IMG/VR virus record: IMGVR_UViG_3300033077_000655
Length of the DNA stretch: 64,000 bases
Reading direction: 5' to 3' (one strand)
Source of the DNA: a virus
Taxonomy: Duplodnaviria; Heunggongvirae; Uroviricota; Caudoviricetes
Positions within the stretch are counted from its first letter, which is position 1. Every line of letters begins with the position of its first letter. The notes under the pieces are model-generated. The model had not been told where the DNA came from. It did no database searches and worked only from the letters and a program-made list of their open reading frames with translations. The position numbers were made by a program, and so were the translations under genes. Below are positions 34 to 62,393 of the stretch, piece after piece.

Positions 34-393
34 TTGGAACAAAAAGCCAAGCAAGAAATACAAGACAAGAATCCAGCCAAACCTGACAATCAAGATGACT
101 ACGAAGAAGCTGCACAAGAAGAGTCCCAAGAACCCATGCTGAGTGGTACTGCCATGATGACGCCTGTGAGTGTGGGTGAATGTGGCCCTGTGAAAATTAT
201 CACACTGGAAGATGGCACATGTTTAGAATGCTGGGGAGATCAACATCGTGGATTTGAGATACGCCATCAAGACCGTGTGTTGCCCAGCCGATTTGGTACA
301 TTAGATGAAGCCGAAATGGCAGTGGAGATGTTTAGAGCACATCGTCGTTCATTGCCGCAAGATCCCAGTGAAGATTACTTAGAAGAAGCATAA
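34..393 (+). CDS. hypothetical acidic protein
   Basis: Complete ORF; its stop overlaps the next start (TAATATG). No recognisable motifs. Confidence 0.4.
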   Translation: MEQKAKQEIQDKNPAKPDNQDDYEEAAQEESQEPMLSGTAMMTPVSVGECGPVKIITLEDGTCLECWGDQHRGFEIRHQDRVLPSRFGTLDEAEMAVEMFRAHRRSLPQDPSEDYLEEA

Positions 394-394
394 T

Positions 395-3100
395 ATGATC
401 ATAGACGATTTTTTCAAACCCAAACTCACAGTTGCCGAAGCATCTGCTGCCAATGATTATTTCACACGCCGCAAGAGTGAAGAAGATCGTATTGCTGGTG
501 TCAAGGCTCCGGCCAAGAACAAAAAGAATCCTGCCAACACTGACTACGCTAAAAAGCGTAAACAGCAAGATGTGACCGAAGCCGGGCATGATCACCGCAG
601 GCGTGCTGCTGCTTCGCACGATGATGAAGAATGTTCATCATGTGATGGAACTGGTGAAGGTCGGCATGAAGGACAAAGTTGCGGTGCTTGCGGAGGATCA
701 GGTGTGGCCCGCGGTCAATATGATCACGATGATTTTGATATTCCAGACAAAGACGATATGTATGAAGATGTTGCAAAAACTTTGCCAATGAGTGATGCTG
801 TAAAAGTATTGCGTCAGTATGGTGCAGATCATTTCAAAACAACCAGCAATGAATTGCATTTTTATAAGAACGGCCGACCATTCAGTGTTGACTTGATCTG
901 GAACGACGATGCAACTCGTAGTGTAAGTTTGAGCCAGCTGAATTCAGCCACTCGTCGATTAAAAGGGCAAGGTGTGGCGGAAGCAAAACAAGAGCAGACA
1001 TACAAAGTATACATTCAGGACACTGACGGTTCGGAAAGATTGGGTGGTACTTTTGTTGCCAAAAGCCCAGCACACACTAGAGAATTAGCCAAAAAACAAG
1101 GTGTAAAAAATATTACTAGCATTGAATTAAAGCAAGGTGTGAAGAAAGGTGTGGCGGAGGCGTTCCCTAATCCAGGCTCGGGTAACACTGGCAGCAGTAA
1201 AGAAGACAAGCGGATAGCAGCCGCTCTACGAAAAAAGCATATACCCACTACACCTAATGACAAGAAAGAGCAAGGTGTGGCGGAGGGCAAACCACAAAAA
1301 AAAGCAGACCGTTATCACATCAATAAAGATGGTAAGCCGGCGACACTAGCAAGTTACCCCGATAAAGACAGTGCTGTTAAAGACCGCGACAGCAAGTATC
1401 CTGACGCCAAAGTTCATCAAGTTGGACCAAGAGGTAAAGTCAAGGGTGAGTTTGAGGAAGGTGTGGCGGAAGGCAAGGATGAAAAGATTGCCCAACTAAA
1501 GAAAGATCACGACACCGCAGTACATTGGAGCAAGAATGAAACAAGCCCACAGAAGCGTGAGGCTGCTCGTCGAAAGGCTGAGAAGATTAAAAGTCACTTA
1601 GAGAAACAATACAAGCAAGGTGTGGCGGAAGGCAGAGTTGCCCAACTGCCAACTCACGGTGCAGATTACAGCAAGTATGACACCGACCATTTGAAAACAA
1701 TGTTGCGACCTGGTATCTTACATCGTGATGAAGCAAGATTCAAATCACTTATTCGCCAAGAATTAAAGAAGCGTGAACAGCAAAGTCAGCAAGGTGTGGC
1801 GGAGGCTGTTTGGGATCGTCCATCACAATCATATGTCCCACGTGATGGTAGAACATTTGGACAAACAAATCACCCTAGAGAAGAACATTGTGATTTCTGT
1901 GGTGCCGCAACAGGACACGCAGGTACTGGTGAAGATAGTATTGAAGATGACGAAGGTAATGTTTATTGCGATGATTGTTATGCCGATCAGCAAGGTGTGG
2001 CGGAAGGTGAGGAAGAAAATATTGATCAGTTTATTAGCGGAAATTCACCAAATTTTAATGGTGAGAGTAATAGAGTAAGTGCTGACACAGCCCAGTACAA
2101 TTTTATAAACTTTCTTGAAAAGAAAGGTTTCAATGTAGACTATATCAACGATCAAGCATATCCTGTACTTGTGGCAATATGTCAAGGCAAAATGTGTGCA
2201 TGGTATGATTTTAAAAATGCGCACGGGTATGTTTCCGAGCAAGGTGTGGCGGAAGGCTTATCCAAGCGTGATCAAAAGGATGTGGCTGCGATCAAGGCCG
2301 CGATTGAAAGATTAGAGTCACAACTTAAACAACCTAATGCTGATAAAGAATCTATTCAACAAAGTATTGCCCACGAGCGGAAGCGACTGGCATTGTATAA
2401 GCAAGGTGTGGCGGAATCCAACACACTGATGAAAAAACTGCATCAAGCCTTGTTAAAAGAAGGCCGTGTGAAAGAATTAGCCGATGATCTCAAAACTCTC
2501 AACGACACCGAGTTCATGAAGAAATACGGCAAGGCCAAAGCTGCTATCCGCAAGGACATGAAAAAATTACACGAGGCAGTATCAACATTATCTCCTGAAC
2601 AACTTGCATATAATCAACTTAGAGCACAAATAGATAGCGCAAACTTTTTGCGTGGTGGTAATACTGCAAATACAGTTGTGAATACCACTCCTGAAGTACA
2701 AGCGTCTCAGGCCAATATGAATAACAAATTAGCTCAAATGGCCGCTGCATTAAAAGCCAAAGGCATAGATGCAGCAGCTGAGTATGATGCGCCAGAACCA
2801 GGTGCTGCTCCTGCACAACCTGTTGATCTAAATCAAAAGTACAATAGCAAAAATAAAGTGCAACAACCAGTGATAGCACCAGCTCAACCAGGTGTGGCAG
2901 AAGCACGTATGAGTGCAGCACAACGATTGAGCACGGCCTGGGATCGACAACGTGCCAAGAGTGACGCCAGTTTGGCAAGAACTCCCGGCTCAATTCCCAA
3001 AAAGCAAGAACCTAAGAAAGCAGACACTAATACAAAGACCGTAAGCGAACATCGTGTGCAACGTCGGACACTAATGGCGCAGATGTTAAACGGCCATTGA
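395..3100 (+). CDS. 901-aa Lys/Glu-rich protein with at least 11 dispersed QGVAE[GAS] repeats and two Cys-rich zinc-ribbon-like segments
   Basis: Long ORF. The DNA motif caaggtgtggcggaag recurs about every 150-250 bp. The protein contains CSSCDG...CGACGG and CDFCG...CDDCY segments. Confidence 0.6.
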   Translation: MIIDDFFKPKLTVAEASAANDYFTRRKSEEDRIAGVKAPAKNKKNPANTDYAKKRKQQDVTEAGHDHRRRAAASHDDEECSSCDGTGEGRHEGQSCGACGGSGVARGQYDHDDFDIPDKDDMYEDVAKTLPMSDAVKVLRQYGADHFKTTSNELHFYKNGRPFSVDLIWNDDATRSVSLSQLNSATRRLKGQGVAEAKQEQTYKVYIQDTDGSERLGGTFVAKSPAHTRELAKKQGVKNITSIELKQGVKKGVAEAFPNPGSGNTGSSKEDKRIAAALRKKHIPTTPNDKKEQGVAEGKPQKKADRYHINKDGKPATLASYPDKDSAVKDRDSKYPDAKVHQVGPRGKVKGEFEEGVAEGKDEKIAQLKKDHDTAVHWSKNETSPQKREAARRKAEKIKSHLEKQYKQGVAEGRVAQLPTHGADYSKYDTDHLKTMLRPGILHRDEARFKSLIRQELKKREQQSQQGVAEAVWDRPSQSYVPRDGRTFGQTNHPREEHCDFCGAATGHAGTGEDSIEDDEGNVYCDDCYADQQGVAEGEEENIDQFISGNSPNFNGESNRVSADTAQYNFINFLEKKGFNVDYINDQAYPVLVAICQGKMCAWYDFKNAHGYVSEQGVAEGLSKRDQKDVAAIKAAIERLESQLKQPNADKESIQQSIAHERKRLALYKQGVAESNTLMKKLHQALLKEGRVKELADDLKTLNDTEFMKKYGKAKAAIRKDMKKLHEAVSTLSPEQLAYNQLRAQIDSANFLRGGNTANTVVNTTPEVQASQANMNNKLAQMAAALKAKGIDAAAEYDAPEPGAAPAQPVDLNQKYNSKNKVQQPVIAPAQPGVAEARMSAAQRLSTAWDRQRAKSDASLARTPGSIPKKQEPKKADTNTKTVSEHRVQRRTLMAQMLNGH

Positions 3101-3787: not shown

Positions 3788-6454
3788 ATGAGTTACATTG
3801 ATGCACTATATGATCGAGCACACGATCGAATTCACGTTGTAGAACGCCGAGATGGCCGACGGGTATATCAAGAATATCCAGCCAACTATGTGCTTTACTA
3901 TGACGACCCACGTGGCAAGTTTCGTAGCATCTACGACACGCCTGTAAGTAGATTTTCCTCACGCAACAACAAAGAATTCCGCAAGGAAGTGCGTATGCAC
4001 TCCAGTAAGAAAATCTACGAAAGTGATATCAATCCTATTTTTCGTTGTTTAGAGGACAACTACAAAGGCCAAGACGGACCAAAGTTACACACAGCATTTT
4101 ATGACATTGAAGTTGACTTTGATCCAGAACGTGGATTCTCACCGGTAACTGATCCATTCAACCCAATCACCGCTATTTCAGTATACATGGATTGGTTGGA
4201 TCAGATTGTGACCTTGGCAGTACCACCGCGACACATGAGTATGGCAACTGCTAAAGAAATTGCCGCAGAGTTCGACAACTGCTTTATGTTTGAAAAAGAA
4301 GCAGACATGTTGAACACATTTCTAGACTTGATTGAAGATGCGGATATTCTCACTGGATGGAATAGTGAAGGCTATGACATTCCTTACACTGTGAATCGTA
4401 TCACCAGAGTGCTCAGCAAAGATGACACTAGACGTATGTGTTTGTGGAATCAGTATCCCAAGCCACGTATATTTGAACGATTTGGTGCAGAGAACCAAAC
4501 TTACGATTTGGTAGGACGAGTGCATATGGACTATATGCAATTGTATCGCAAATACACTTATGAAGAACGTCACAGCTATGCACTAGATGCCATTGGTGAA
4601 TACGAAGAAATTGGCCGAAAGACTGCATTTGAAGGCACACTGGATCAGCTGTACAACCAGAACTTCAAAATCTTTATTGATTACAACCGCCAAGATACAA
4701 TGCTGATTGGCAAGCTGGACAAGAAACTGAAATTTCTTAGCTTGGCCAATACACTGGCACATGAAAATACCGTGCTGCTGCAAACCACAATGGGTGCAGT
4801 GGCTGTGACTGAGCAAGCAATTATTATTGAAGCTCACGAACGTGGTATGGTAGTTCCTAACCGTAAAGAAAGACTCTCAGATGAAGACACGCAAGCCGCA
4901 GGTGCCTATGTTGCTTATCCCAAAAAAGGAATCCACGACTGGATTGGTAGTATCGACATCAACTCGCTCTATCCCAGTGCTATTCGGGCCCTTAACATGG
5001 GTCCAGAAACCATTGTCGGCCAACTCCGTCCCATAATGACTGACCGGCTGATTCGAGACAACATGACCAAGGGAGATAGCTTTGCTGCTGCTTGGGAAGG
5101 ATTGTTTGCCAGCCTAGAATACACAGCCGTGATGGAACAACAACGCGGTACAGAAATCACAATAGATTGGCAAGATGGCAATGAAACTGTGCATTCTGCT
5201 GCTGAAATATGGAAGATGCTGTTTGATTCAAATCAACCTTGGGTACTCAGTGCTAATGGAACCATATTCACCTATGAGAAAGAAGGTATCATTCCCGGCT
5301 TGCTCAAACGTTGGTATGCTGAACGTAAAGACATGCAGAAAAAAGCCAAGGAATACGAAGGCAAAGATGATGTGCAATTTGAATACTGGGACAAGCGACA
5401 ACTGGTCAAGAAGATTAATCTAAACAGTTTGTATGGTGCTATTCTCAATGCAGGTTGTAGATTCTTTGACAAACGTATTGGACAATCAACCACCTTGGTA
5501 GGTCGCAGCATTGCTAAACATATGGATGCATACGTGAACGAATGTATCACTGGTGAATACGATCACACAGGTAAAAGCATTATCTATGGTGATACTGATT
5601 CATGTTATTTCACAGCATGGCCCATGGTCAAAACTGAAGTCGAGGACGGCAGGATGGATTGGTCTGCAGAGACTTGTATTGCACTGTACAACTCCATTGC
5701 TGATCAAGTGAATGATAGTTTTCCAGGATTCATGGAACAGGCATTCCATTGTCCACGAGAAATGGGATCAGTTATCCGTGGCGGGCGAGAAATTGTAGCA
5801 CGTACCGGACTGTTTATTACCAAGAAACGATATGCTGTATTGTACATTGACAAAGAAAACAAACGTGTGGATGTGAATGGCAAGCCAGGCAAGGTCAAGG
5901 CCATGGGGCTTGATCTCAAAAGGTCAGACACGCCTGTGGTTATTCAAGAGTTCCTTAGCGATCTTCTAAATAAGGTTCTAACAGGAACACAGAGAGAAGA
6001 TATAGTGGCACGAGTCAGAGAGTTCAAATACGTATTCACAGAGCGACCAGGGTGGGAAAAGGGTAGTCCCAAACGTGTGAATAATTTAACCAAATATGGC
6101 AAAGAAGAACAACGACTGGGCAAAGCCAACATGCCTGGGCATGTTCGTGCTGCATTAAACTGGAACAATCTGCGACGAATGAATTCTGACAATTACTCAA
6201 TGCAAATTGTTGATGGTATGAAGACCATTGTGTGCAAACTCAAAAGCAATGCACTTGGGTGGACATCAATTGGTTATCCTACCGATGAACAACATTTACC
6301 ACAGTGGTTCAAAGACTTGCCATTTGATCATGTTGAGATGGAAGCCACTGTGGTAGATCAAAAGATTGATAATCTCTTGGGTGTGTTGGGATGGGACTTA
6401 AAGTCCAGCACCAACACAGCAAATACATTTACCAGCTTGTTCTCATTTGAATGA
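3788..6454 (+). CDS. DNA polymerase, family B (T4 gp43-like)
   Basis: Motifs DINSLYPS (motif A) and YGDTDS (motif C). 888 aa, with an exonuclease-like N-terminal half. Confidence 0.9.
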   Translation: MSYIDALYDRAHDRIHVVERRDGRRVYQEYPANYVLYYDDPRGKFRSIYDTPVSRFSSRNNKEFRKEVRMHSSKKIYESDINPIFRCLEDNYKGQDGPKLHTAFYDIEVDFDPERGFSPVTDPFNPITAISVYMDWLDQIVTLAVPPRHMSMATAKEIAAEFDNCFMFEKEADMLNTFLDLIEDADILTGWNSEGYDIPYTVNRITRVLSKDDTRRMCLWNQYPKPRIFERFGAENQTYDLVGRVHMDYMQLYRKYTYEERHSYALDAIGEYEEIGRKTAFEGTLDQLYNQNFKIFIDYNRQDTMLIGKLDKKLKFLSLANTLAHENTVLLQTTMGAVAVTEQAIIIEAHERGMVVPNRKERLSDEDTQAAGAYVAYPKKGIHDWIGSIDINSLYPSAIRALNMGPETIVGQLRPIMTDRLIRDNMTKGDSFAAAWEGLFASLEYTAVMEQQRGTEITIDWQDGNETVHSAAEIWKMLFDSNQPWVLSANGTIFTYEKEGIIPGLLKRWYAERKDMQKKAKEYEGKDDVQFEYWDKRQLVKKINLNSLYGAILNAGCRFFDKRIGQSTTLVGRSIAKHMDAYVNECITGEYDHTGKSIIYGDTDSCYFTAWPMVKTEVEDGRMDWSAETCIALYNSIADQVNDSFPGFMEQAFHCPREMGSVIRGGREIVARTGLFITKKRYAVLYIDKENKRVDVNGKPGKVKAMGLDLKRSDTPVVIQEFLSDLLNKVLTGTQREDIVARVREFKYVFTERPGWEKGSPKRVNNLTKYGKEEQRLGKANMPGHVRAALNWNNLRRMNSDNYSMQIVDGMKTIVCKLKSNALGWTSIGYPTDEQHLPQWFKDLPFDHVEMEATVVDQKIDNLLGVLGWDLKSSTNTANTFTSLFSFE

Positions 6455-7617: not shown

Positions 7618-8336
7618 AAGACCATCTCTTAGACCTAGTACAACACACATTTGATCTTGGATGTATTGACTTGATCAAAATCTCAGGCACCGATGCTGCC
7701 ACCGCAGTAAATGGTGTTGCTGCTGACAATTCAGTTATCTTGGAAGCACAATTTGCCAACCCTGTTGCTGAGTTTATTGGCACGTTTGGTATGCCCAATC
7801 TTGGTAAACTCAAGACCTTGCTTAACTTGCAAGAGTATCGTGAAGATGCCAAACTGGCCATCACACGCAGAACCACAGGTGAGCCTGATGGTATCAACTT
7901 TGAAAACAAAGATGGTGACTTCCGTAACAACTACAGATTCATGACCAGTGAAGTTGTGAATGACAAACTTAAAACTTTGAAATTCAAAGGTGTAAATTGG
8001 CACATCACTGTTGATCCCACAGTATCTGCTATTCAACGTTTGAAAATGCAGTTCCAGGCCAACTCCGAAGAAACAAACTTTCAAGTCAAAGTTGAAAACA
8101 AAAATCTAAAATTCTTCTTTGGAGATCATTCTACACACAGTGGTAATTTTGTGTTTCACCCTGACATTGTGGGAACACTTAAACGCACTTGGTCGTGGCC
8201 GGTGCAGCAAGTTATCAGCATATTGGGACTGGTTGGTGACAAGACCATGAAGATCAGTGATGACGGCTGTATGCAAATCACAGTGGATTCCGGCCTGGCC
8301 GTTTACAACTACATTTTACCTGCACAAACCAAGTGA
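7614..8336 (+). CDS. hypothetical protein
   Basis: ORF with overlapping start. Confidence 0.45.
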   Translation: MKDHLLDLVQHTFDLGCIDLIKISGTDAATAVNGVAADNSVILEAQFANPVAEFIGTFGMPNLGKLKTLLNLQEYREDAKLAITRRTTGEPDGINFENKDGDFRNNYRFMTSEVVNDKLKTLKFKGVNWHITVDPTVSAIQRLKMQFQANSEETNFQVKVENKNLKFFFGDHSTHSGNFVFHPDIVGTLKRTWSWPVQQVISILGLVGDKTMKISDDGCMQITVDSGLAVYNYILPAQTK

Positions 8337-9877
8337 TCAACCAAGACAATCTCACAGCCAAGCAACTGGACTATGCCGTTTTTCTTCCGGCCATCTCGGG
8401 ATTCTATGCCACGTTTGTGGGCAAGCAACGTAATGGACCTTATGTAGATCCTGCACGCATGCCAGCCGGACTGACTGACATGGAAATGATGAACTGGCTC
8501 AACAGTACCAAAGCATTGTTTCCGTACAAGTGGAGTTTGTATTCAGGTGGGCATGCCAATCTAGATCTTGCCAAGCAAGACTGGTCGGAAGACATGGTTC
8601 GCAATCGTGAACCTGGCACATTCATGCTAGGCGACTCGGGCGGATTCCAGATTGCCAAAGGCTTGTGGGAAGGTGATTGGAAAGCCAACTCAGGCTGTGC
8701 CAAAGCACAAAAGAAACGTGCTGCTGTGTTAACATGGCTGGACAGTGTGAGTGATTACGGAATGATCTTGGATATTCCTACCTGGGTTATTCATGACAAG
8801 AAAGCATCCAAGGCCTGTCAGATCACCACACTGCAAGAAGCAGTGGATGCTACCAAGTTCAACAATGAATACTTTATGGCCCATCGCCGGGGCAAAGAAA
8901 ACGGTGGTGCCAAGTTCTTGAATGTTTTGCAAGGTGACAATCATACTTCAGCAGAACAATGGTATCAGGAAATGAAAGACTTTTGCGATCCTATAAAGTA
9001 TCCCAACACACACTTTGATGGGTGGAGCATGGGTGGACAAAACATGTGCGATGTGCATCTGGTACTCAAACGACTGGTGGCTCTGCGACATGATAACTTA
9101 CTGCAACAGGGCAAGCACGATTGGATGCACTTCTTGGGCACATCAAAGCTGGAATGGGCAGTATTGCTTACGGTGATTCAGCGAGCCATTAGAAAATATG
9201 TTAACCCTGCCTTTACCATATCGTTTGATTGTGCCAGTCCATTTTTAGCCACTGCAAATGGACAAGTATATCATCACATTGATCTGGCACACAACGAAAA
9301 GTGGTGCTATAGAATGAGCCCTATTGCAGATGACAAGAAATACAGCACAGACACAAGACCTTATGGTACAGCAGTGGTAGCAGATGGCCTGGTCAATCAC
9401 TTTGATGAAAGCCCACTCAGTCGATTATTGACCATGAAGGATATATGCATCTACCGGCCCGGTGATCTAAACAAGATTGGTAAAGAAGGCAAAACAAGTT
9501 GGGATTCATTCTCGTATGCATTGTTGATGGGTCATAATGTTTGGATGCACCTGGAGGCAGTACAACGTGCCAATCGTACATTTGATTCTGGATCATGGCC
9601 TTACATGATGTGGGACGAAAAAGGTGATCACACTCACTTTGCAGACATTGTGGAGGCTATCTTTGCCACCGACGATCGTGCAGAGTCAGAAGCCATAATT
9701 GAATCCTACAACAGATACTGGATGGATATTATTGGTACTCGCGGATTCAAAGGCAAAAAGGCCATGAATGCCAATACACAGTTTTCGGCATTATTTGATG
9801 TGGTAGAGGTTGACTCAGACTCTGAAGATATGTTAAACTCTGAAGCATTACAACAACTTGAACAGGATCAAGTATGA
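8333..9877 (+). CDS. dpdA: tRNA-guanine transglycosylase-like protein, candidate DpdA-type 7-deazaguanine DNA transglycosylase
   Basis: Contains the LGDSGGFQIAKG motif matching the TGT-family catalytic DSGGFQ block. Lies in the same operon-like run as folE, queD and queE. Confidence 0.55.
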   Translation: MINQDNLTAKQLDYAVFLPAISGFYATFVGKQRNGPYVDPARMPAGLTDMEMMNWLNSTKALFPYKWSLYSGGHANLDLAKQDWSEDMVRNREPGTFMLGDSGGFQIAKGLWEGDWKANSGCAKAQKKRAAVLTWLDSVSDYGMILDIPTWVIHDKKASKACQITTLQEAVDATKFNNEYFMAHRRGKENGGAKFLNVLQGDNHTSAEQWYQEMKDFCDPIKYPNTHFDGWSMGGQNMCDVHLVLKRLVALRHDNLLQQGKHDWMHFLGTSKLEWAVLLTVIQRAIRKYVNPAFTISFDCASPFLATANGQVYHHIDLAHNEKWCYRMSPIADDKKYSTDTRPYGTAVVADGLVNHFDESPLSRLLTMKDICIYRPGDLNKIGKEGKTSWDSFSYALLMGHNVWMHLEAVQRANRTFDSGSWPYMMWDEKGDHTHFADIVEAIFATDDRAESEAIIESYNRYWMDIIGTRGFKGKKAMNANTQFSALFDVVEVDSDSEDMLNSEALQQLEQDQV

Positions 9878-10380
9878 TACGAGCAGGACACGACGATGTG
9901 GCATTCTTCACCGGCACAGAAGTAGAACACACACCCGCATTTGGTAAAAAGACATTGTTTGTAGTAGGCTTGCAGACAGCAGATGATATTGCTGCTCACA
10001 TGCAAGGTTGCGAACATATCTACTTTGGTGCCAATCACAGTTTTCCCAACATCAACACCGACGATTATGTCAAGTGGTCCCGATGGCAAGATATGATTTA
10101 TCCCTTGTTAGATCTTGGTTATCTATGTACATTGGATATCAATGTTGCTCAAGTGGAGGGAATGTTAGAAGGTTCATTCACCGAGTATCACAACTTCATC
10201 CCAATGATATCAGTCAAGCTACCATACATCAAACTGTTAGGCTATAACGCCACACTCAAGCTGGATGACAAGGATTTTGCTGCTACCAACCCAGGCGTTT
10301 GGTGTCACAGCATACATGAACTACAAAAACGAGACCACTTTACTGACTGGTCTAAATATACCAAGGATCAAGTATTATGA
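9874..10380 (+). CDS. hypothetical protein
   Basis: ORF with overlapping start, inside the deazaguanine module. Confidence 0.4.
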   Translation: MIRAGHDDVAFFTGTEVEHTPAFGKKTLFVVGLQTADDIAAHMQGCEHIYFGANHSFPNINTDDYVKWSRWQDMIYPLLDLGYLCTLDINVAQVEGMLEGSFTEYHNFIPMISVKLPYIKLLGYNATLKLDDKDFAATNPGVWCHSIHELQKRDHFTDWSKYTKDQVL

Positions 10381-16458: not shown

Positions 16459-18465
16459 ATGAAGAACAAAATTGCCTGGGTTCAACCCAATTTCCAACAA
16501 GGGCCTGCAGAGTTTAATGCATATTACTTGCCCTACTCAGCCGGTGTGGTATGGAGTTACAGTCTAGCTGATCCTTGGATTCGAGAACGGTTTGAAGCCA
16601 CTGATTGGGTATGGCGTAGAGACGCTGTAGAACCATTGGCACAAAAACTGGCACAAAACGACATTGTGACTTTTAGTACCTATGTGTGGAATCATCGTTA
16701 CAATTATGCTGTGGCCAAACGCATCAAGGAAATCAATCCTGCTGTATTGACTGTATTTGGTGGCCCTGAAGTTGCTATAACCGACCCTGACCTGTTTGTT
16801 AAAGAATCTTTTATGGATCTTGTGATTTGCTACGAAGGCGAAATAACTTTCAAACGTGTGCTACAGCACTTTGAAACTAAAGATTGGGAAAATGTACCTG
16901 GACTGTTGATCAACAGAAATGGCCGCGCAATACAAACACAGGATTCTAAACGTATTGAGTCATTAGAGGAAGTGCCCAGCCCGTACTTGGCAGGCATCTT
17001 TGACCAGATGATTGCCGATCATCCTGACATAACATGGCAAGGCACATTAGAAACCAATCGTGGTTGTCCGTTTGCTTGTACATTCTGTGACTGGGGTAGT
17101 TTGACCTACAACAAAGTTAAAAAGTTTGAACTTGAACGTGTGTTTGAAGAACTAGAATGGATGGCCAAACGCAACTTTGATTGGATCTCAATTACCGATG
17201 CTAACTTTGGTATGTTCCCCGAACGTGATGGTATGATTGCTGACAAGATAATTGAGTGCCAAGAAAAATACGGTTCTCCACGCACGTTTAGTGTGGCCTG
17301 GGCTAAAAATCAAAAGAAAGAAGTGATCGACATTGTAAAGAAACTGTTGGATGCTCGTGGCTTCAATCAAGGATTAACACTCAGTGTACAAAGCCTTGAC
17401 CAGGATGTGTTGGAAAATATTCGCCGCAAAAATATGGAAATGAACAAACTGGAGGAAGTGTTTGAATTATGTGATCAGCGTAATATTCCTGCATACACAG
17501 AACTCATACTTGGGTTGCCTGGTGAGACATTGACCACCTGGAAGAAAAACTTTTATGCATTGTACGAGTTAAATCAGCACACTGGCATTACTGTGTTTCA
17601 AGCGCAGTTGTTGGAAAATGCCGAAATGAACTTGTTGCAAAAGAAACTGTTCAAGATCACCAGCCAACCTGTTACAGATTACTTTGCTGGCAGTTACAGC
17701 GTGGAACACATTGAAGAAAGCATTGACGTTATCACCGGCACCAAAGACATGCCCACACCAGTGATGTTGGATGCACAGATCTTTTCCTGGTTCCAGACCA
17801 CATTCCACATAAATGGATTTGCCACATTGATTGCTAGATTTATCAACAAATACACAGGTATAAGTTACAATGATTACTATGAAGAGTTGTTTGCATATTT
17901 TATGACCAATGAGTGGTTGAAGAAAGAACAAAACGAAGCAAGACAATACTTTTCTAATTGGATGACCACTGGCCGAATCAACCATCCCAAGATTGGTGTG
18001 GAAATACACGGGTGGAACATCATACACAGAACCAGCATGAACATGCATCAAGAAGATCGGGTAGATGAGTTGTATGATTTCTTGGAAATATTTTTGCAAC
18101 GATACAATCTACCCGAAGATTTATCAACCAGTCTGATGAAACTACAAAGAAGTTACTACATCAAGTACAATGATAGAAATCAATATCCTATGAATCTTAA
18201 GTTAGATTATAATATTTGGGATTACTTGAGTTTTAATCAACCCTTGACAAAGACTTCTACAACATATCGATTGGACTTTCCAGAGGATAAAACTATGAGT
18301 CTTAATCGATTCTTAGAACTGTTTTATTTTGCAAGACGCAGAAACTTTGGTAAAGCCACTGTGGATCTTGTGGGAGTCGAAAATGCCAATGGAACACAAC
18401 GTGGTGCTGGGAGTGCCAAAGCACAAGGCAGTTTTTCTGTGAAGAAAAAATTATTAACCATATAA
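16459..18465 (+). CDS. B12-binding-domain radical SAM protein
   Basis: NRGCPFACTFCDW (Cx3Cx2C) follows an N-terminal Rossmann-like B12-binding-like domain. Confidence 0.7.
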   Translation: MKNKIAWVQPNFQQGPAEFNAYYLPYSAGVVWSYSLADPWIRERFEATDWVWRRDAVEPLAQKLAQNDIVTFSTYVWNHRYNYAVAKRIKEINPAVLTVFGGPEVAITDPDLFVKESFMDLVICYEGEITFKRVLQHFETKDWENVPGLLINRNGRAIQTQDSKRIESLEEVPSPYLAGIFDQMIADHPDITWQGTLETNRGCPFACTFCDWGSLTYNKVKKFELERVFEELEWMAKRNFDWISITDANFGMFPERDGMIADKIIECQEKYGSPRTFSVAWAKNQKKEVIDIVKKLLDARGFNQGLTLSVQSLDQDVLENIRRKNMEMNKLEEVFELCDQRNIPAYTELILGLPGETLTTWKKNFYALYELNQHTGITVFQAQLLENAEMNLLQKKLFKITSQPVTDYFAGSYSVEHIEESIDVITGTKDMPTPVMLDAQIFSWFQTTFHINGFATLIARFINKYTGISYNDYYEELFAYFMTNEWLKKEQNEARQYFSNWMTTGRINHPKIGVEIHGWNIIHRTSMNMHQEDRVDELYDFLEIFLQRYNLPEDLSTSLMKLQRSYYIKYNDRNQYPMNLKLDYNIWDYLSFNQPLTKTSTTYRLDFPEDKTMSLNRFLELFYFARRRNFGKATVDLVGVENANGTQRGAGSAKAQGSFSVKKKLLTI

Positions 18466-22069: not shown

Positions 22070-22797
22070 GGCTGTACGTCAACGGCGATAGCCATACAGC
22101 AGGTGCAGAAGCAGTATCACCGGCAGCATTTGCCGAGGATGATGGCCATCCTGAACTGGGGCGCCGACCACATCCTGCTAATCTAGCAGTAAGCTGGGGA
22201 CAACAACTGGCTGACAAATTAGGCATTGAATTGGTATGTGATGCTGAATCTGCTGCATCTAACTACAGAATTCTTCGTACCACACGAAACTGGATGAATA
22301 GTTTACAGCCCTGGGAATCGGCGGTGGCAATCATACAGTGGAGCACTTGGGAGCGCGAAGAGTGGTTGCACAATGGTGAATACTTGCAAGTAGGCAGTTC
22401 GGGTCTGGATTTGGTTCCTGACGAACTAGCGGATCAGTACAAGCGATTTGTAGTTGGTGTAGATTGGACTTGGTGCCAACAATACTGGCACGATGAGATT
22501 TGGCAACTGCATCAGGACCTGGATGCAGCAAAGATCCCGCATGTGTTCTTTAACGGCAACAATTCATTTGATCGAATCCGTAATGGTGCCTGGCACCAAG
22601 TTGATTGGAACAACGCATACATCGCACCATATTCAGAATACACTTACGATCATATACTACGTGAAGCCAATTTTGTCACGGTGAATCCTGAGTCCTGGCA
22701 TTTCGGTAAAGATGCCCATTGCTTTTGGGCTGAATTTGTGTTACAATACTGTATAGAAAACAATATATTGGATCCCCATGCGATATCTCTTGATTGA
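22066..22797 (+). CDS. SGNH/GDSL-like hydrolase candidate
   Basis: N-terminus LYVNGDSHTAG resembles SGNH block I. Paralogous to the interrupted gene at 45596-46245. Confidence 0.45.
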   Translation: MRLYVNGDSHTAGAEAVSPAAFAEDDGHPELGRRPHPANLAVSWGQQLADKLGIELVCDAESAASNYRILRTTRNWMNSLQPWESAVAIIQWSTWEREEWLHNGEYLQVGSSGLDLVPDELADQYKRFVVGVDWTWCQQYWHDEIWQLHQDLDAAKIPHVFFNGNNSFDRIRNGAWHQVDWNNAYIAPYSEYTYDHILREANFVTVNPESWHFGKDAHCFWAEFVLQYCIENNILDPHAISLD

Positions 22798-23800
22798 TAC
22801 AGCTAACACTTTTTTCCGTGCTCGCCACTCTGTTTTCCGTGCTGCTGATGCTTGGGAAAAAGTAGGATATGCTTTACACATTGTGATGAGTAGTGTGAAC
22901 AAAGTACACAAACAGTTTCAAGCAGATCACGTGATTTTCGCACTAGAAGGGCGATCATGGCGCAAGGACTTTTATGGTCCCTACAAGAAAAACCGCGCTG
23001 TGGCTCGTGCTGCATTATCGGATACAGAACAAGAAGAGGATAAATTGTTTTGGGAAACCTATGATAGCCTCACTAAATACTTGGCTGAAGGTACTAACTG
23101 TAGCGTTATCCGACATCCTGAAGCCGAAGCAGACGACGTGATTGCTCGCTGGATAGCCTTGCATCCGCAGGACGAGCACTACGTGATTTCATCAGACACA
23201 GATTTTGTGCAATTACTAGCACCCAATGTTAGCCAATATAATGGCATTACCGATGAACTTCACACGGTAACAGGCATATTTGATGCCAAGGGCAAGCGTG
23301 TGAAAGACAAAAAGACCAAGACAGACAAAGTGATTCCTGATCCAGAATGGCTGTTGTTTGAAAAATGCATGCGTGGTGATACGTCTGATAACGTATTTTC
23401 GGCGTATCCTGGTGTGCGAACCAAAGGCACCAAAAACAAAGTTGGCTTGCAAGAAGCATTTGAAGACCGCAATAACAAAGGCTTCAATTGGAACAATCTC
23501 ATGTTACAACGTTGGTCTGACCACAATGGTGACGAACATCGTGTGAAAGACGACTACGAACGCAATCGTGTACTGATTGATCTCACTGCACAACCCAAAG
23601 AGATCAAAGACAAAGTGGATGGTGCGATACGTGAACAGATCAGCCACAAAGACATTGGCCAAGTTGGCGTGCGATTCATGAAGTTCTGCGGCAAGTACGA
23701 ACTCAACAAAATATCTGAGTCAGCGGAGCAGTATGCTCGCTGGCTTAACGAAACCTATAAAGGAACACTAGATGAGCATCATAGCCAAGCCCATAGTTAA
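22778..23800 (+). CDS. 5'-3' exonuclease / flap endonuclease (T4 RNase H-like)
   Basis: N-terminus MRYLLIDTANTFFRA (PIN-like); acidic clusters throughout. Confidence 0.6.
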   Translation: MRYLLIDTANTFFRARHSVFRAADAWEKVGYALHIVMSSVNKVHKQFQADHVIFALEGRSWRKDFYGPYKKNRAVARAALSDTEQEEDKLFWETYDSLTKYLAEGTNCSVIRHPEAEADDVIARWIALHPQDEHYVISSDTDFVQLLAPNVSQYNGITDELHTVTGIFDAKGKRVKDKKTKTDKVIPDPEWLLFEKCMRGDTSDNVFSAYPGVRTKGTKNKVGLQEAFEDRNNKGFNWNNLMLQRWSDHNGDEHRVKDDYERNRVLIDLTAQPKEIKDKVDGAIREQISHKDIGQVGVRFMKFCGKYELNKISESAEQYARWLNETYKGTLDEHHSQAHS

Positions 23801-27323: not shown

Positions 27324-28337
27324 ATGCGTAAGATGGCAACTATTCGACAAATTGATGCACTGAATCCTATTGAGGGTGCAGATGCTATTGAGTGCGCTAC
27401 CATTGGTGGATGGAAGGTAGTGGTAAAGAAGGGTGAGTTTGCGGTAGGCGACCGTGCAGTGTATTGCGAGATTGACTCTTGGATTCCCACCGAGATTGCA
27501 TCATTCCTAAGCAAGGGCAAGGAGCCTCGCGAGTTTGAAGGTATCCGCGGCGAACGTCTGCGTACTGTAAAGCTACGAGGCCAACTGAGCCAAGGTCTGC
27601 TGCTGAATCTTGATGATGTTATTCCACAAACCAATTCATTCGTCGAAGGTGATGATGTATCAGAACTGCTGAACATTGTGAAGTGGGAAATGCCCATGAA
27701 TGCACAACTAGCCGGAATGGCCAAGGGTAATTTTCCTTCTGAGATTCCCAAGACTGACCAAGAACGTGCGCAGAATCTTGTTGGAGAAATCCAGGCTGCT
27801 GCCGAAACAGGCACTGAGTTCGAAGTGACTGAAAAGCTAGAAGGCTCTTCAATGACTGTGTACTTGATTGATGGCGAGTTTGGTGTTTGCTCTCGCAACC
27901 TGGACCTTAAGGAAACTGAAGGCAATACATTTTGGCAAGTGGCACGGCGTGATGACATTGAGGCAAAGATGCGTTCAGTTGTTGGTACTGATTTTGCAAT
28001 TCAAGGCGAATTGATTGGCCCTGGAATTCAAGGCAATATCTACAAACTACGTGAACCAGAGTTCCGTGTGTTTGATATTTACAGCATTACTACAGGTGCT
28101 TATCTGTCTCCTCAAAAGCGCAGAGAACTAATTCGAAATCTTGGTCTACTCCATGTTCCTTTTATCTCTGTTGACAAAGACCTTGGTGTTGGCTCTATTG
28201 ACGAAATTCTTCAATGGGCAGAGGACATATCAATTTTAAATCCTACTGTACAGCGTGAAGGCATCGTGTTCAAGGAAGTGAATGGCGGCATGAGCTTCAA
28301 GGCAATCTCTAACAAGTACCTGCTGGGAGAAAAGTAA
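27324..28337 (+). CDS. ATP-dependent RNA ligase, second type (Rnl2/DraRnl-like)
   Basis: N-terminal OB-like IRQIDALNPIEGADAIECATIGGWKVVVKKGEF; nucleotidyltransferase motif I-like KLEGSS; 337 aa. Confidence 0.5.
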   Translation: MRKMATIRQIDALNPIEGADAIECATIGGWKVVVKKGEFAVGDRAVYCEIDSWIPTEIASFLSKGKEPREFEGIRGERLRTVKLRGQLSQGLLLNLDDVIPQTNSFVEGDDVSELLNIVKWEMPMNAQLAGMAKGNFPSEIPKTDQERAQNLVGEIQAAAETGTEFEVTEKLEGSSMTVYLIDGEFGVCSRNLDLKETEGNTFWQVARRDDIEAKMRSVVGTDFAIQGELIGPGIQGNIYKLREPEFRVFDIYSITTGAYLSPQKRRELIRNLGLLHVPFISVDKDLGVGSIDEILQWAEDISILNPTVQREGIVFKEVNGGMSFKAISNKYLLGEK

Positions 28338-40365: not shown

Positions 40366-41256
40366 ATGAACAAAGAACTATTGAAAGAGTTTGTGCTAGC
40401 CAACCCACGGTTGGTTAGTATGAAGCCTGCTGGCGATGGTATCTTTGTGCTCAAGTACAAGAAGGCTGTGTTCTACGACAACTTGTGGAATGACTTTTTG
40501 GAAGAATGTCGCGGTACAATTGTTGACATTGACTTTAATGTGGTGTCACGTCCATTCACAAAGATCTACAACTACGGTGTAGAAGCCAAGGCTCCTGTGC
40601 TGAGTGAAGATACTGTGGTAGAATGCTTTCGTAAGGTCAATGGCTTTATGGTTGCAGTGACTTGGCACGACGGTCGACTGCTGGTATCCACAACTGGATC
40701 CACATCTGGTGACTTTGTAGACATGGCCAACTCCTTCATTGACCGGCGTCGCGGCACCTTTGAACGGTATGTGAGTGGCTTCCCTGACTTGACTTTTATG
40801 TTTGAATGTGTGCATGCAAATGATCCACACATCATTGTAGAAAAGCCAGGACTGTACTTGCTGGGCTATCGTAAAAAGACTTGGGAAAGCCGTAGCGAAA
40901 ACGATGGACTCAGCCTGTATCACCAATATGCATTGTCAGACCACGTGGTAGAATGGAAGCGTTGTACTCTGGGCGAACTAGTACAGGAAGTGAAAACTGT
41001 TCGGCATGAAGGTTTTGTAGTATATGCTAACGACTATACTACATCCTTCAAGATCAAAAGCCCATACTACCTAACTGCAAAGTGGGTGGCACGTAACCCT
41101 CGCACCGACAAACTGATGACACAAGAATTCCGAGAACAATTGGATGAAGAGTATTACCCGCTGCTGGAGCACATCCGTGCTAACATAGAGGCTTATACTG
41201 TTATGGATGAACAAGCACGCCTGGCCTGGGTGCGTGAATATTTGGAGATGGTATGA
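40366..41256 (+). CDS. rnlA: RNA ligase 1 (T4 RnlA-like)
   Basis: LEECRGTIV...SRPFTKIYN aligns with T4 RnlA ALECRGIMF...SRPMEKFFN; KVNGFM matches motif I KxDG; EGFVVY matches motif IV. Confidence 0.7.
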   Translation: MNKELLKEFVLANPRLVSMKPAGDGIFVLKYKKAVFYDNLWNDFLEECRGTIVDIDFNVVSRPFTKIYNYGVEAKAPVLSEDTVVECFRKVNGFMVAVTWHDGRLLVSTTGSTSGDFVDMANSFIDRRRGTFERYVSGFPDLTFMFECVHANDPHIIVEKPGLYLLGYRKKTWESRSENDGLSLYHQYALSDHVVEWKRCTLGELVQEVKTVRHEGFVVYANDYTTSFKIKSPYYLTAKWVARNPRTDKLMTQEFREQLDEEYYPLLEHIRANIEAYTVMDEQARLAWVREYLEMV

Positions 41257-41984: not shown

Positions 41985-42743
41985 ATGTCCGTATTCTTAG
42001 ACTCAGTGATAGAGTTCTACATCACCAATCAATGCAACCTAGCCTGCACCAACTGCAATAGGTTCAATGATCACGATTTCCGTGGTCACTACTATTGGGA
42101 GGATTCTGCACCTGCTGTCACAGCATGGAGTCAACGTATCAATGCATCAATGATAGTGATCATTGGCGGTGAACCCAGCTTGCATCCTGGGTTAGAAACT
42201 TGGGTGATGAATCTTCGCAGATTATGGCCGGACACCACAATCATGATTCAGAGTAATGGCACTAATGCAAAAATAGCAAAAGATCTCGACTCTTACAGCA
42301 AGTACCATGTGGGATGGGGTATAAGTGTACATCGTCCTGAGATGCGACCTGCATTAGAACGACAATGGGGCAACCTTATTGACAACACAGAATTTACCCC
42401 GGCTGCAATTATTCCGCAAGGTGATGCATTTGTTGTTCATCAGAGCAATCCGATAACTGCATTCAAAGCCTGCACCATGCGGCATAGTCACACTGTATTC
42501 AAAGGAAAACTGTACAAGTGTCCTGTGATGGCTGTGCTGCCAGAGTTCCGCACACAGCAATCAGTAATCATGGATACCAGGCAAGAACAGTTGTTGGCTC
42601 AGTATCAACCATTGAGTGCGGACTGTACTGAGCAACAGTTGACGGACTTTGTAGACACAAGAAATCAACCCATTGATCAATGTGAATTTTGCCCTGGTGA
42701 ATTTGATTTCCAGCCAGTGGTATTTCACAAAAGAAAAAAATAA
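41985..42743 (+). CDS. radical SAM protein (single Cx3Cx2C cluster)
   Basis: FYITNQCNLACTNCNRF...IIGGEPSLHPGL. Confidence 0.5.
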   Translation: MSVFLDSVIEFYITNQCNLACTNCNRFNDHDFRGHYYWEDSAPAVTAWSQRINASMIVIIGGEPSLHPGLETWVMNLRRLWPDTTIMIQSNGTNAKIAKDLDSYSKYHVGWGISVHRPEMRPALERQWGNLIDNTEFTPAAIIPQGDAFVVHQSNPITAFKACTMRHSHTVFKGKLYKCPVMAVLPEFRTQQSVIMDTRQEQLLAQYQPLSADCTEQQLTDFVDTRNQPIDQCEFCPGEFDFQPVVFHKRKK

Positions 42744-61988: not shown

Positions 61989-62085
61989 ACTTCCTATCTA
62001 TGGTGTGTGTTCAGATTATATAGAAACTATATTGTCTAAATAAATATATGAATAGTCGTAATCCCTTCAAAACAAAGGAATCCAA

Positions 62086-62366
62086 GACTCGGGGGCAGTG
62101 CCCGAATGGTCCACCAGAAGCATAATCGATTGGCTCAGAGCCAGTTGAGACATAAGAAACATGATTGTGCTTTTGATGGGCCATACACAGGATCGATTGG
62201 GTTAGATAGTGGCGACGGCGACTCGGTAGGCGATGACCGTTAATCAAGCGAAACCTATAAATGCCAACGACAGCGTTTATTCCTTAGCTGCCTAAACTCA
62301 GCTTAGGGTAGTTATACCTCGTAACAGAAAATAACAGAAGCCCGCTTCGGCGGGCTTTCTTTTGAC
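62086..62366 (+). ncRNA. ssrA: candidate tmRNA (ssrA)-like RNA with tag reading frame ANDSVYSLAA-stop; architecture unresolved
   Basis: Sits in a 380-bp non-coding gap. GCC AAC GAC AGC GTT TAT TCC TTA GCT GCC TAA at 62263-62295, preceded by CTATAAAT. Upstream ...GGTCCACCA at 62112-62120. Ends in a strong terminator. Confidence 0.5.
62338..62364 (+). terminator. intrinsic terminator
   Basis: AAGCCCGC-TTCG-GCGGGCTT followed by TCTTTTG. Confidence 0.8.
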
Positions 62367-62393
62367 TGTTATTTTTGATCACTATATACTAGC

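Follow-up and report, generated by a model that had tools for sequence, protein, structure and literature searches.

A very large family of cassette-array proteins in T4-related jumbo phages, built on a nucleotide-frozen in-frame linker that may double as a prohead-protease site

How does a phage come to carry, in one reading frame, more than a dozen small proteins that share nothing with each other except the short peptide that joins them, and why should the DNA encoding this peptide hardly vary? The question is raised by a gene at positions 395..3100 (plus strand) of the IMG/VR virus record IMGVR_UViG_3300033077_000655, a 64,000-nucleotide stretch of DNA from a tailed phage (Caudoviricetes) that, at its full length, we call the window. 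The gene is an uninterrupted, ATG-initiated open reading frame (ORF) of 901 codons, just where an earlier reading made from the letters alone (the sequence-only reading) had placed it. That reading was drawn to a recurrent QGVAE motif and proposed either a polyprotein of internal-core or scaffold peptides, cut at QGVAE↓G (the arrow marks the presumed cut) by a protease of the T4 prohead type, or a modular linker protein. The most secure of our conclusions is that this ORF is one member of a very large cassette-array family of T4-related jumbo phages, whose proteins we refer to as mosaic proteins.

The 901-amino-acid protein consists of about 14 mutually unrelated mini-proteins and one invariant linker. 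GVAE occurs ten times in it (at residues 193, 252, 294, 356, 409, 467, 534, 617, 671 and 833), where composition predicts 0.027 copies and the maximum over 20,000 shuffles was two, and the remaining 61 kb of the window, read in all six frames, contain none. Seven copies have the strict form QGVAE[GAS] and in three the Q is replaced by K, E or P, so that the eleven or more strict motifs announced by the sequence-only reading are reached only under relaxed matching; two degenerate linkers, TVAE↓A (residues 11-14) and DVTE↓A (60-63), can also be recognized. The rest of that description stood up well. The segments between motifs measure 42-83 residues, plus one gap of 162, in keeping with the spacing of about 50-80 given before, and the motifs are indeed encoded by a near-identical DNA word, CAAGGTGTGGCGGAAG, with four exact copies in the window, ten at two mismatches or fewer and 12 at three or fewer (0.36 expected). 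The two zinc-ribbon-like Cys4 patches are real as well, one in module b (CSSC...CGAC, residues 80-101) and the other in module i (HCDFC...YCDDC, residues 497-528), the latter with weak matches to Zn-ribbon and Lar families.

Between the linkers, nothing recurs. An all-against-all comparison of 15 segments revealed no homology among modules (best E = 0.014, with matches limited to linker residues), and Tandem Repeats Finder detected no repeat array in the gene, the sole repeat being a 12-nt unit present twice (AAGAAAGGTGTG, 1130-1153, plus strand). It encodes a half-linker, QGVK, immediately 5′ of linker 2 (KGVAE), and looks like a scar of slippage or imprecise recombination within the linker. 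Ten of the 14 modules are basic and of 4-11 kDa. One linker has been lost through point changes near residues 121-127 (window 755-778), where the protein reads MYEDVAKT and its counterparts read MYEGVAE↓GVAKT (family protein P0006) and MYEGVAE↓TV (P0004); this loss leaves modules b and c of the window protein fused.

A protein search with the full-length query gave at least 465 matches, most of them over only 7-10% of the query at 70-96% identity, and an exhaustive HMMER scan of 1.84 billion representatives returned 608 clusters (at 50% identity) with E ≤ 1e-3, 387 of them with E ≤ 1e-10. Family members are typically found on jumbo-phage contigs of up to ~350 kb, and 120 listed proteins together contain 468 copies of GVAE. 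All follow one architecture, an N-terminal leader and then from 2 to at least 16 unrelated modules of 4-11 kDa, joined by the linker [K/E][Q/E/K]GVAE↓[G/A]. When the window protein was divided into a leader and modules a to n and these were placed onto the matches, module order and combination proved to be permuted, and the motif delimited the modules nearly always: examples are P0004 (a b c. h e.. l n), P0009 (k g ... c), P0013 (h a), P0038 (l .. c a), P0050 (g k) and P0057 (k e). The "modular linker protein" of the sequence-only reading is an apt description. Clustering of the 647 segments (median 67 amino acids) that linkers delimit in 231 proteins, a biased sample, gave 281 cassette families, of which 175 are singletons. 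Module c is the commonest, with 81 copies and about equally many distinct neighbours, a number inflated by counting each unclustered neighbour as distinct; module a occurs in 25 of 119 other listed proteins at 65-100% identity, both N-terminally and internally.

Recognizable cargo is sparse. Among 54 members scanned we found cytidylyltransferase-like, DUF5872, GP88, DUF6321, LysM and RyR domains, a DnaJ-type zinc finger (the DnaJ_CXXCXGXG family, as in module b, in one member) and Lar-like zinc ribbons; enzymatic domains are scattered (CTP_transf_like in four members, Methyltransf_23 in one), and a single Peptidase_C39_2 match is the only peptidase-like domain. The window protein itself has no named relative among 50,697 phage records, T4 included (megablast and tblastn, E ≤ 1e-3), no family assignment in Pfam, PHROG, NCBIfam, PADLOC or PDB sequence searches, and no Rfam family within its gene. 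The searchable literature, an incomplete library, gave no prior description of the family or its linker and no phage polyprotein of a similar kind, and every match to QGVAE in it was to alpha-synuclein and irrelevant. UniProt lists one uncharacterised member with module c at 82% identity (A0A6J5TD30, in BFVD, 637 amino acids, from an uncultured Caudovirales phage), and free-standing phage proteins of 69-76 amino acids have a module c-like fold (H6BI12 of cyanophage S-RIM8, template-modelling (TM) score 0.63; V9QKY7, TM 0.71).

The phages in question can be placed through their DNA polymerases. A family-B polymerase gene (3788-6454) neighbours the mosaic gene in the window, and its product shares 46-49% identity with the polymerases of the jumbo phages Phosso and Atu_ph07 and ~42% with those of fHe-Yen9-04 and the Serratia BF group. 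Phages of the Phosso/Atu_ph07 type are known as "group 2" jumbo phages, defined by a gp23-type capsid protein. At least 600 IMG/VR relatives share the window polymerase at 80% identity or more, on contigs of up to 349-364 kb, and the source of the window is a giant phage of freshwater type.

If the linker were conserved as a peptide only, its synonymous sites should follow the codon usage of the genes around it, which is not what we observe. In three independent sets of copies (those of the window, those of loci found by protein similarity, and the non-exact-word copies in loci selected by the DNA word), the linker glycine is GGT in 96-100% of cases, against 42-55% elsewhere in the same genes, the valine is GTG in 80-100% (18-26% elsewhere), and the alanine is GCG in 76-94%, although GCG is the rarest alanine codon of these genes (4-9%). 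Only the final glutamate has a free wobble position, with a GAA/GAG ratio equal to the background. The peptide does not account for so uniform a DNA word: a nucleotide block, (CAA)GGTGTGGCGGA, is frozen at synonymous sites against the codon bias. Loci totalling 1.9 Mb that were not selected by the word contain 80 copies of its 11-mer core (~1 expected by estimate), and all of these lie in the GVAE frame within long ORFs, as do 230 of 234 copies in the word-selected loci. Since every unselected copy is in frame in a long ORF, a role of the word outside coding sequence was rejected; internal Shine-Dalgarno or restart sites were likewise discarded by inspection, the glutamate wobble that would create GGAGG being at background and no start codon being suitably spaced.

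The second line of evidence comes from close relatives. Two loci, L127 and L128, have flanks 91-97% identical to the window, and in blastn comparisons the homology of the window to them ends or restarts at linker cores (nt 1474, 1992, ~2222-2244, 2415 and 2424). Relative to L127, modules g to j form one clean indel running from linker to linker: homology ends at 1474 and resumes at ~2222, and the cores start at 1460 and 2243. L128 has modules j and k too, each between linker cores and with other cassettes separating the two, and k is separated from l in the same manner. All this occurs in one genomic slot (ferritin, an ORF of 190-220 amino acids, the mosaic gene, a small ORF), in which the mosaic protein ranges from 155 amino acids in L295, complete with a leader and two cassettes, through 843 in L127 and 901 in the window, to 1102 in L128. 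In relatives of ~184-354 kb, the modules are unrelated and the mosaic gene is located between the polymerase and a DnaJ/ClpB pair.

Homology that breaks exactly at the word and synonymous sites that are frozen within it together identify the linker as a recombination joint, and we consider it very probable that the linker DNA serves for in-frame cassette exchange, a judgement that extends to this part alone. The mechanism would be simple. The block (CAA)GGTGTGGCGGA would offer a short patch of identity at each module boundary in all phages of the group, and recombination between any two copies would insert, delete or swap whole modules with the frame kept; recombination at linkers would in turn explain how one genomic slot holds from 2 to at least 16 cassettes of an open-ended pool. 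Homing endonucleases could stimulate exchange at cassette loci.

Frozen codons could also be read as a translational or RNA signal, such as a pause at the rare GCG (and GTG) that would let each module fold before the next is made. The linkers are located at domain boundaries, the rarest alanine codon is precisely the one that prevails in them, and the 36 tRNA genes of the window (32920-55444, plus strand, densest at 42.7-48.7 kb), which cover most amino acids, include a single alanine tRNA, with anticodon GGC, that does not read GCG. However, a pause does not predict the near-fixation of GGT, the commonest glycine codon, nor would it require the same codons in phages of different hosts, and it leaves unexplained both the precise homology breaks at the core and the free change of neighbours. 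As a replacement for the recombination joint we find such a signal highly improbable; it is compatible with the joint and could act alongside it.

Is the peptide, then, nothing but a by-product of the joint? The prohead proteases found in T4 and in giant phages cut C-terminally to Glu within a short motif, and T4 head proteins bear N-terminal propeptides of 10-20 residues, with the processing of the IPIII leader depending on residues 8 and 10; an Asp at P1 blocks T4 processing. The T4 N-termini of gp24 (MAKINELLRE↓S), gp67 (MEGLIE↓A) and gp21 (MNEPQLLIE↓T) illustrate the pattern, and the resemblance of the linker to T4 gp21 sites that the sequence-only reading had noticed is borne out, with the hydrophobic Val at P3, Glu at P1 and a small residue (G/A) at P1′. 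Where linkers have degenerated at homologous module ends, the P1 Glu is the best-kept residue and P3 changes only to M, L or I; forms such as GVTE, DVAE, GMAE, DVKE and DVTE far outnumber GVAK and GVAD. At 664 distinct sites, P1′ is G, A, T or S in 591, and residues that are destabilising under the bacterial N-end rule occupy it in only two, against a background of 27.5%. The linker peptide is not merely a shadow of the DNA.

The N-terminus of the family tells a similar story. Of 77 distinct family N-termini, 63 match [LIVFM]xE within the first 22 residues, compared with 31 of 104 other ORFs from these phages (p = 2e-12); for a tighter leader pattern the counts are 41 and 8 (p = 1e-11). Examples are MRITELLAE↓A, MKTTEFITE↓A, MNFKELFE↓G and MIIDQLFTRPLFE↓S, and the leader of the window protein, MIIDDFFKPKLTVAE↓A, has the ~10-20 residues ending in hydrophobic-x-Glu of T4-type propeptides. 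These leaders resemble the N-termini of the clade's own prohead proteins, p275 (MNKFEQLIE↓Y) and Gp23 (MSQALLE↓G), and p275, an acidic prohead-core protein, is itself one of the few control ORFs that match. Directly upstream of the mosaic gene of another locus, L121, two ORFs (8021-8992 and 9037-9999) begin with MNLKELYSF and MKINQIVQE↓TT, the same leader type, and their products may be additional proteins with such a leader, possibly packaged, grouped at that locus.

Structure prediction with AlphaFold2 (AF2) is in line with linkers that lie between folded units. Module c gave a confident model (predicted local distance difference test (pLDDT) 87.9) whose confidence collapses on the GQGVAE tail, and it shows module c folding independently, with the linker disordered and outside the folded part. 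In a full-length prediction, made from the single sequence after a MAFFT alignment of fragments was discarded for stacking them on their shared linkers, the three confident stretches each start directly behind a linker, and two stop at the following one.

A protease suited to such sites exists in the clade. Three loci fetched solely via the DNA word (L019, L042 and L070) encode a portal protein, a gp21 homologue with conserved His and Ser blocks, a scaffold protein and Gp23. A further copy of this gp21 homologue is P0242 (L287 10001-10627). At least 574 close IMG/VR relatives of the protease are known, the contigs that carry them reaching 352,754 bp, and all its matches in protein databases carry PF03420 (Peptidase_S77, the T4 gp21 type). 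That the three loci belong to a smaller T4-like lineage was considered and rejected, their proteases being 77-100% identical to genes on these very large contigs. On a contig of 353,768 bp the gene order is Portal_T4, p72, p275, Peptidase_S77, scaffold and Gp23, and a contig of 354,120 bp from the same sample series carries the mosaic protein P0017 together with a polymerase 72% identical to that of the window. The search for a prohead-protease gene thus succeeded for the clade and failed for the window, where neither the 20 largest ORFs nor tblastn revealed one.

The earlier notion of a polyprotein cut at QGVAE↓G came through each in-silico test applied to it and gains moderate support from the chemistry of the site, the leader, the protease of the clade and the position of the linker outside the fold of module c; "scaffold peptides", on the other hand, finds no support, since the real scaffold and core proteins of the clade lack the motif. 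Cleavage of the linker by the prohead protease is the best mechanism at hand and agrees with all the sequence evidence; we give it an even chance.

The same facts can be turned towards an uncleaved, "polyvalent-like" multidomain chain in which the linker would be a flexible spacer and its peptide largely a by-product of the conserved joint DNA. Frozen synonymous sites and breakpoints at linkers are constraints at the DNA level, the canonical motif is missing from the known protease substrates of the clade, the N4 virion RNA polymerase is a multidomain phage protein delivered unprocessed (PMC5512222), and the single-sequence AF2 model runs a helix, at low confidence, through linker 9. Yet degenerate linkers retain Glu at P1 and V, M, L or I at P3 while the Glu wobble is free, which points to a protein-level constraint such as a Glu-specific protease would impose, and bulky or basic P1′ residues are avoided (2 of 664). 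An uncleaved chain also leaves a family-specific, propeptide-like leader without a role, and 14 unrelated domains of 5-10 kDa in arbitrary order are hard to fit to a single concerted function. We regard it as unlikely.

Combining both levels, the gene would be a cassette-array polyprotein with a short leader and ~14 unrelated, mostly basic mini-proteins of 4-11 kDa, joined by [K/E][Q/E/K]-G-V-A-E↓[G/A], a peptide that would be a prohead-protease site of the T4 type. The leader would target the precursor to the core of the prohead, the clade's gp21-type protease would then cut after each Glu, and the freed small proteins would stay together with the DNA inside the head and be delivered with it to the host, like Alt and the internal proteins of T4. 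That the cassettes act in anti-defence or host takeover is a guess, made by analogy with T4 IPI and Alt.

Several observations weigh against this proposal. Among the matches listed, protease and mosaic gene lie on separate contigs of ~354 kb, and the protease is known for the clade (with polymerases 62-72% identical to that of the window) and not from the window genome. The bona fide protease substrates of the clade (scaffold, core proteins and Gp23) do have many [LIVM]xE sites and contain no G[VIMA][ATV]E site, so the exact linker is not explained by protease specificity and a constraint on the DNA must account for it; [LIVM]xE matches are in themselves weak evidence, the pattern being loose. 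Head genes are lacking in the window by PHROG scans of the 20 largest ORFs and by tblastn with T4 gp20-24, and the mosaic gene sits amid replication genes. No T4 late promoter (TATAAATA) lies near it, the five copies across the whole window being close to chance by estimate. A mosaic gene beside the capsid gene was rejected as a general feature, being present in only 7 of ~90 head-cluster loci, and an ORF with multiple motifs within 4 kb downstream of the capsid gene was found in none of 26 unbiased loci. The single-sequence, full-length AF2 model is poor (pLDDT 47), and cleavage, head packaging and injection are all steps that we infer from sequence.

Part of this evidence speaks for a true polyprotein that is processed in the cytoplasm by a different Glu-specific protease, of the phage or the host, with unpackaged products that act in the infected cell. 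The gene stands next to the DNA polymerase among same-strand genes of replication and nucleotide metabolism, the slot between the DnaJ/ClpB pair and the polymerase is conserved, adjacency to head genes is rare, and the gene appears coupled to its upstream ORF, with no late promoter seen; the overlap of stop and start codons (Table 1) makes it probable that the two are co-transcribed. But no dedicated protease is recognizable among the neighbouring genes, the upstream ORF (34..393) having neither a Pfam family nor a protease signature, and the family offers only the one Peptidase_C39_2 match mentioned above. The prohead protease is the only Glu-directed protease known from the clade, and the leader resembles prohead-protein N-termini. 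The genes of T4 internal proteins likewise lie outside the head-gene cluster, so little weight attaches to where the gene is located. We think cytoplasmic processing distinctly improbable.

Returning to the two-function model, that is, a polyprotein of internal proteins processed by the prohead protease, with the linker DNA as recombination joint, we rate it in full at slightly under an even chance; its cassette exchange is well supported and its proteolysis, judged from sequence features, moderately so. In the boldest version, an integron-like system would exchange cassettes in frame with the linker as its joint, the same block of 11-14 nt would also encode the freeing protease site, and the outcome would be a combinatorial, fast-turning arsenal of head-delivered effectors in a widespread T4-related jumbo clade; a dedicated sequence-specific enzyme, for example a nearby homing-type endonuclease, may drive the exchange. 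Taken as a whole it is rather doubtful, and the effectors of such an arsenal would plausibly be anti-defence or host-takeover proteins.

A second example of cassette expansion between constant ends is the gene that follows Gp23 in the head-gene loci of one sub-lineage. It has a constant start, MSIKPVLVPD...AAVAE↓A, a constant end, ...QGVAE↓GIDPIEQLKADIKRF, and from 1 to at least 6 cassettes between them, so far seen at 143 amino acids (L287 13835-14266), 387 (L070 770-1975, minus strand), more than 440 (L042 8573-9937) and 749 (L129 3904-6174). An ORF similar to NUMOD3/GIY-YIG homing endonucleases is situated between Gp23 and this gene in L287 (13056-13805), with equivalents in L042, L019 and L070.

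We found no description of this architecture in the searchable literature, which relates to internal proteins, to polyvalent proteins and to shuffling of the PeSL type. The functionally closest known system is that of the T4 internal proteins (IPI, IPII and IPIII) and Alt, which likewise have a short N-terminal leader ending in hydrophobic-x-Glu, are cut after Glu with a small P1′ (here predicted) by a protease of the gp21 family (here present in the clade), yield small and mostly basic products, and vary strongly in content among related phages. According to a T4 review, conservation of the internal proteins is poor, and related phages have different basic proteins whose leaders resemble the capsid targeting sequence (CTS). 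Their size range is comparable to that of the modules. The T4 proteins come from separate genes with one leader and one cut each, whereas a mosaic ORF would give up to at least 16 products through an internal site at each junction; the T4 sites are also less stereotyped, whereas the mosaic linker is far more uniform and is frozen at the nucleotide level. There is no homology to IPI, IPII, IPIII or Alt (tblastn, 50,697 phage records, E ≤ 1e-3).

Polyvalent proteins (Iyer et al. 2017, PMC5512222) resemble the mosaic family in their phage origin and in the combinatorial assembly of many unrelated domains in one chain, and delivery with the DNA, sometimes followed by proteolytic release, has been proposed for them. 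They combine 2-15 domains of disparate biochemical activity, are defined by large enzymatic domains (MPTase, ART, ParB, MuF and others), owe any processing, as proposed, to an embedded peptidase domain, and have no conserved inter-domain linker described, the word "linker" being absent from that text (PMC5512222). In contrast, the mosaic proteins have tiny modules, mostly with no known domain, and a uniform linker as their defining feature, and none of the polyvalent hallmark domains (zincin-like MPTase, MuF, ParB and ART) is present in the window protein or in the 54 family members scanned.

On the side of the DNA, T4-like phages have the PeSL/PmSL elements, which mediate modular shuffling (Arbiol 2010; Comeau 2014, PMC4122927), an idea that their authors tie to shuffling at the T4 internal-protein locus (PMC4122927). 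As with the mosaic linker, a short conserved sequence flanks variable units, lies at the indel or replacement junctions of close relatives and is proposed to allow homologous exchange. PeSLs, however, are intergenic, combine an early promoter with a stem-loop terminator and shuffle genes, whereas the linker is an in-frame block of 11-16 nt that shuffles modules within one ORF.

Motifs that mark cassettes are familiar from polymorphic toxins, where an invariant short peptide (VENN in CdiA, PxxxxDPxGL in Rhs) stands at the boundary between constant and variable parts. The DNA of the motif is thought to allow cassette replacement by recombination, and the Rhs motif is also a cleavage site; each protein has one such boundary, a single variable C-terminal toxin and a cognate immunity gene. 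With up to a dozen or more identical joints, many cassettes, no immunity genes and a phage context, the mosaic proteins differ from these toxins, and by analogy the VENN and DPxGL motifs would be the nearest conceptual counterpart of the linker. Finally, the giant phages phiKZ, 201phi2-1 and SPN3US share the jumbo size, a gp21-related protease, many head cuts and propeptides with multiple sites, their head and ejection proteins being cut at multiple S/A/G-x-E or A-x-E sites. Unlike the linkers, these extra sites lie within discarded propeptides and not between cargo modules, with no uniform linker or evidence of cassette exchange; these phages are also of a different group, the window polymerase being closest to those of group 2, the Atu_ph07 and Phosso type.

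If the proposed model is true, tailed phages would have their first described polyprotein strategy, in which one gene, one leader and one protease yield a dozen small virion-delivered proteins, and there would be a new route to protein diversity, in which a nucleotide-conserved coding joint allows in-frame exchange of modules across genomes. The linker would then be a searchable tag for hundreds of mini-protein cassettes, candidates for injected effectors or anti-defence proteins, with a prediction of the exact mature termini of each, and would make tractable what small and fast-evolving phage ORFans do and how phages gain counter-defence. Linker and leader together could be put to use for packaging and release, as has been done with the T4 CTS. 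Even with cleavage refuted, an in-frame joint frozen at the nucleotide level would remain unusual and well supported.

Table 1. Coordinates in the window of the mosaic gene, its leader, modules and linkers, and the upstream ORF
Feature	Position	Strand	Remark
Whole gene, 901-amino-acid cassette-array (mosaic) protein, including stop	395..3100	+	Identical predicted protein P0001 on a 125,567-bp JGI contig
N-terminal leader MIIDDFFKPKLTVAE↓A, residues 1-14, putative prohead-targeting propeptide ending V-A-E	395..436	+	Family N-terminus enrichment; resembles T4 gp24, gp67 and gp21 N-termini
Module a, residues 15-63, basic (isoelectric point (pI) 9.6), ends in degenerate linker QQDVTE↓A	437..583	+	
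Module b, residues 64-127, acidic, double CxxCxGxG zinc-finger-like; C-terminal linker lost (MYEDVAKT)	584..775	+	
Module c, residues 128-196, commonest cassette of the family, ends KGQGVAE	776..982	+	
Module d, residues 197-255, half-linker scar QGVK, then linker KGVAE	983..1159	+	AF2 confident at residues 199-250
Module e, residues 256-297	1160..1285	+	Module mapping
Module f, residues 298-359	1286..1471	+	L127 homology ends at nt 1474, just past linker core 1460-1470
Modules g, h, i and j, residues 360-620; i is Cys4 zinc-ribbon-like	1472..2254	+	Block missing from the 96%-identical relative L127
Module k, residues 621-674	2255..2416	+	Bounded by linker cores in L128; AF2 confident from residue 623
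Modules l and m, residues 675-836, end in linker QPGVAE (GCA variant)	2417..2902	+	
Module n, residues 837-901, pI 11.6, C-terminal constant module	2903..3097	+	Last module in 20 of 20 proteins that have it
Linker 1, GGTGTGGCGGAA (GVAE)	971..982	+	
Linker 2, GGTGTGGCGGAG	1148..1159	+	
Linker 3, GGTGTGGCGGAG	1274..1285	+	
Linker 4, GGTGTGGCGGAA	1460..1471	+	L127 breakpoint
Linker 5	1619..1630	+	
Linker 6	1793..1804	+	
Linker 7	1994..2005	+	L128 breakpoint
Linker 8	2243..2254	+	Breakpoint with L127 and L128
Linker 9	2405..2416	+	Breakpoint with L127 and L128
Linker 10, GGTGTGGCAGAA	2891..2902	+	
Upstream ORF, 3′ part (~190-220 amino acids in relatives)	34..393	+	Stop overlaps the ATG of the mosaic gene (TAATATG)

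Some further features of these loci deserve mention. A ferritin gene lies two genes upstream of the mosaic gene in L127, L128 and L295, and in L121 (1-2601) and L123 (1804-4977) a DnaJ co-chaperone and a ClpB-like double-AAA+ protein are encoded a few kb upstream of it, with ferritin adjoining; L121 also has an HNH_3 endonuclease gene ~6 kb upstream of its mosaic gene. Elsewhere in the window there are two RNA ligase genes (27324-28337, PHROG 968; 40366-41256, PHROG 562 with 8238), a radical-SAM-like gene (41985-42743) and an exonuclease gene (22778-23800), and most other large ORFs scanned had no PHROG family (for example 8333-9877, 16459-18465 and 50508-52154). The window also encodes a tmRNA (62007-62386, plus strand) with the tag ANDSVYSLAA, which scores 125 bits with the Rfam family beta_tmRNA and 120.8 bits with tmRNA_permuted and hints at a betaproteobacterial host.

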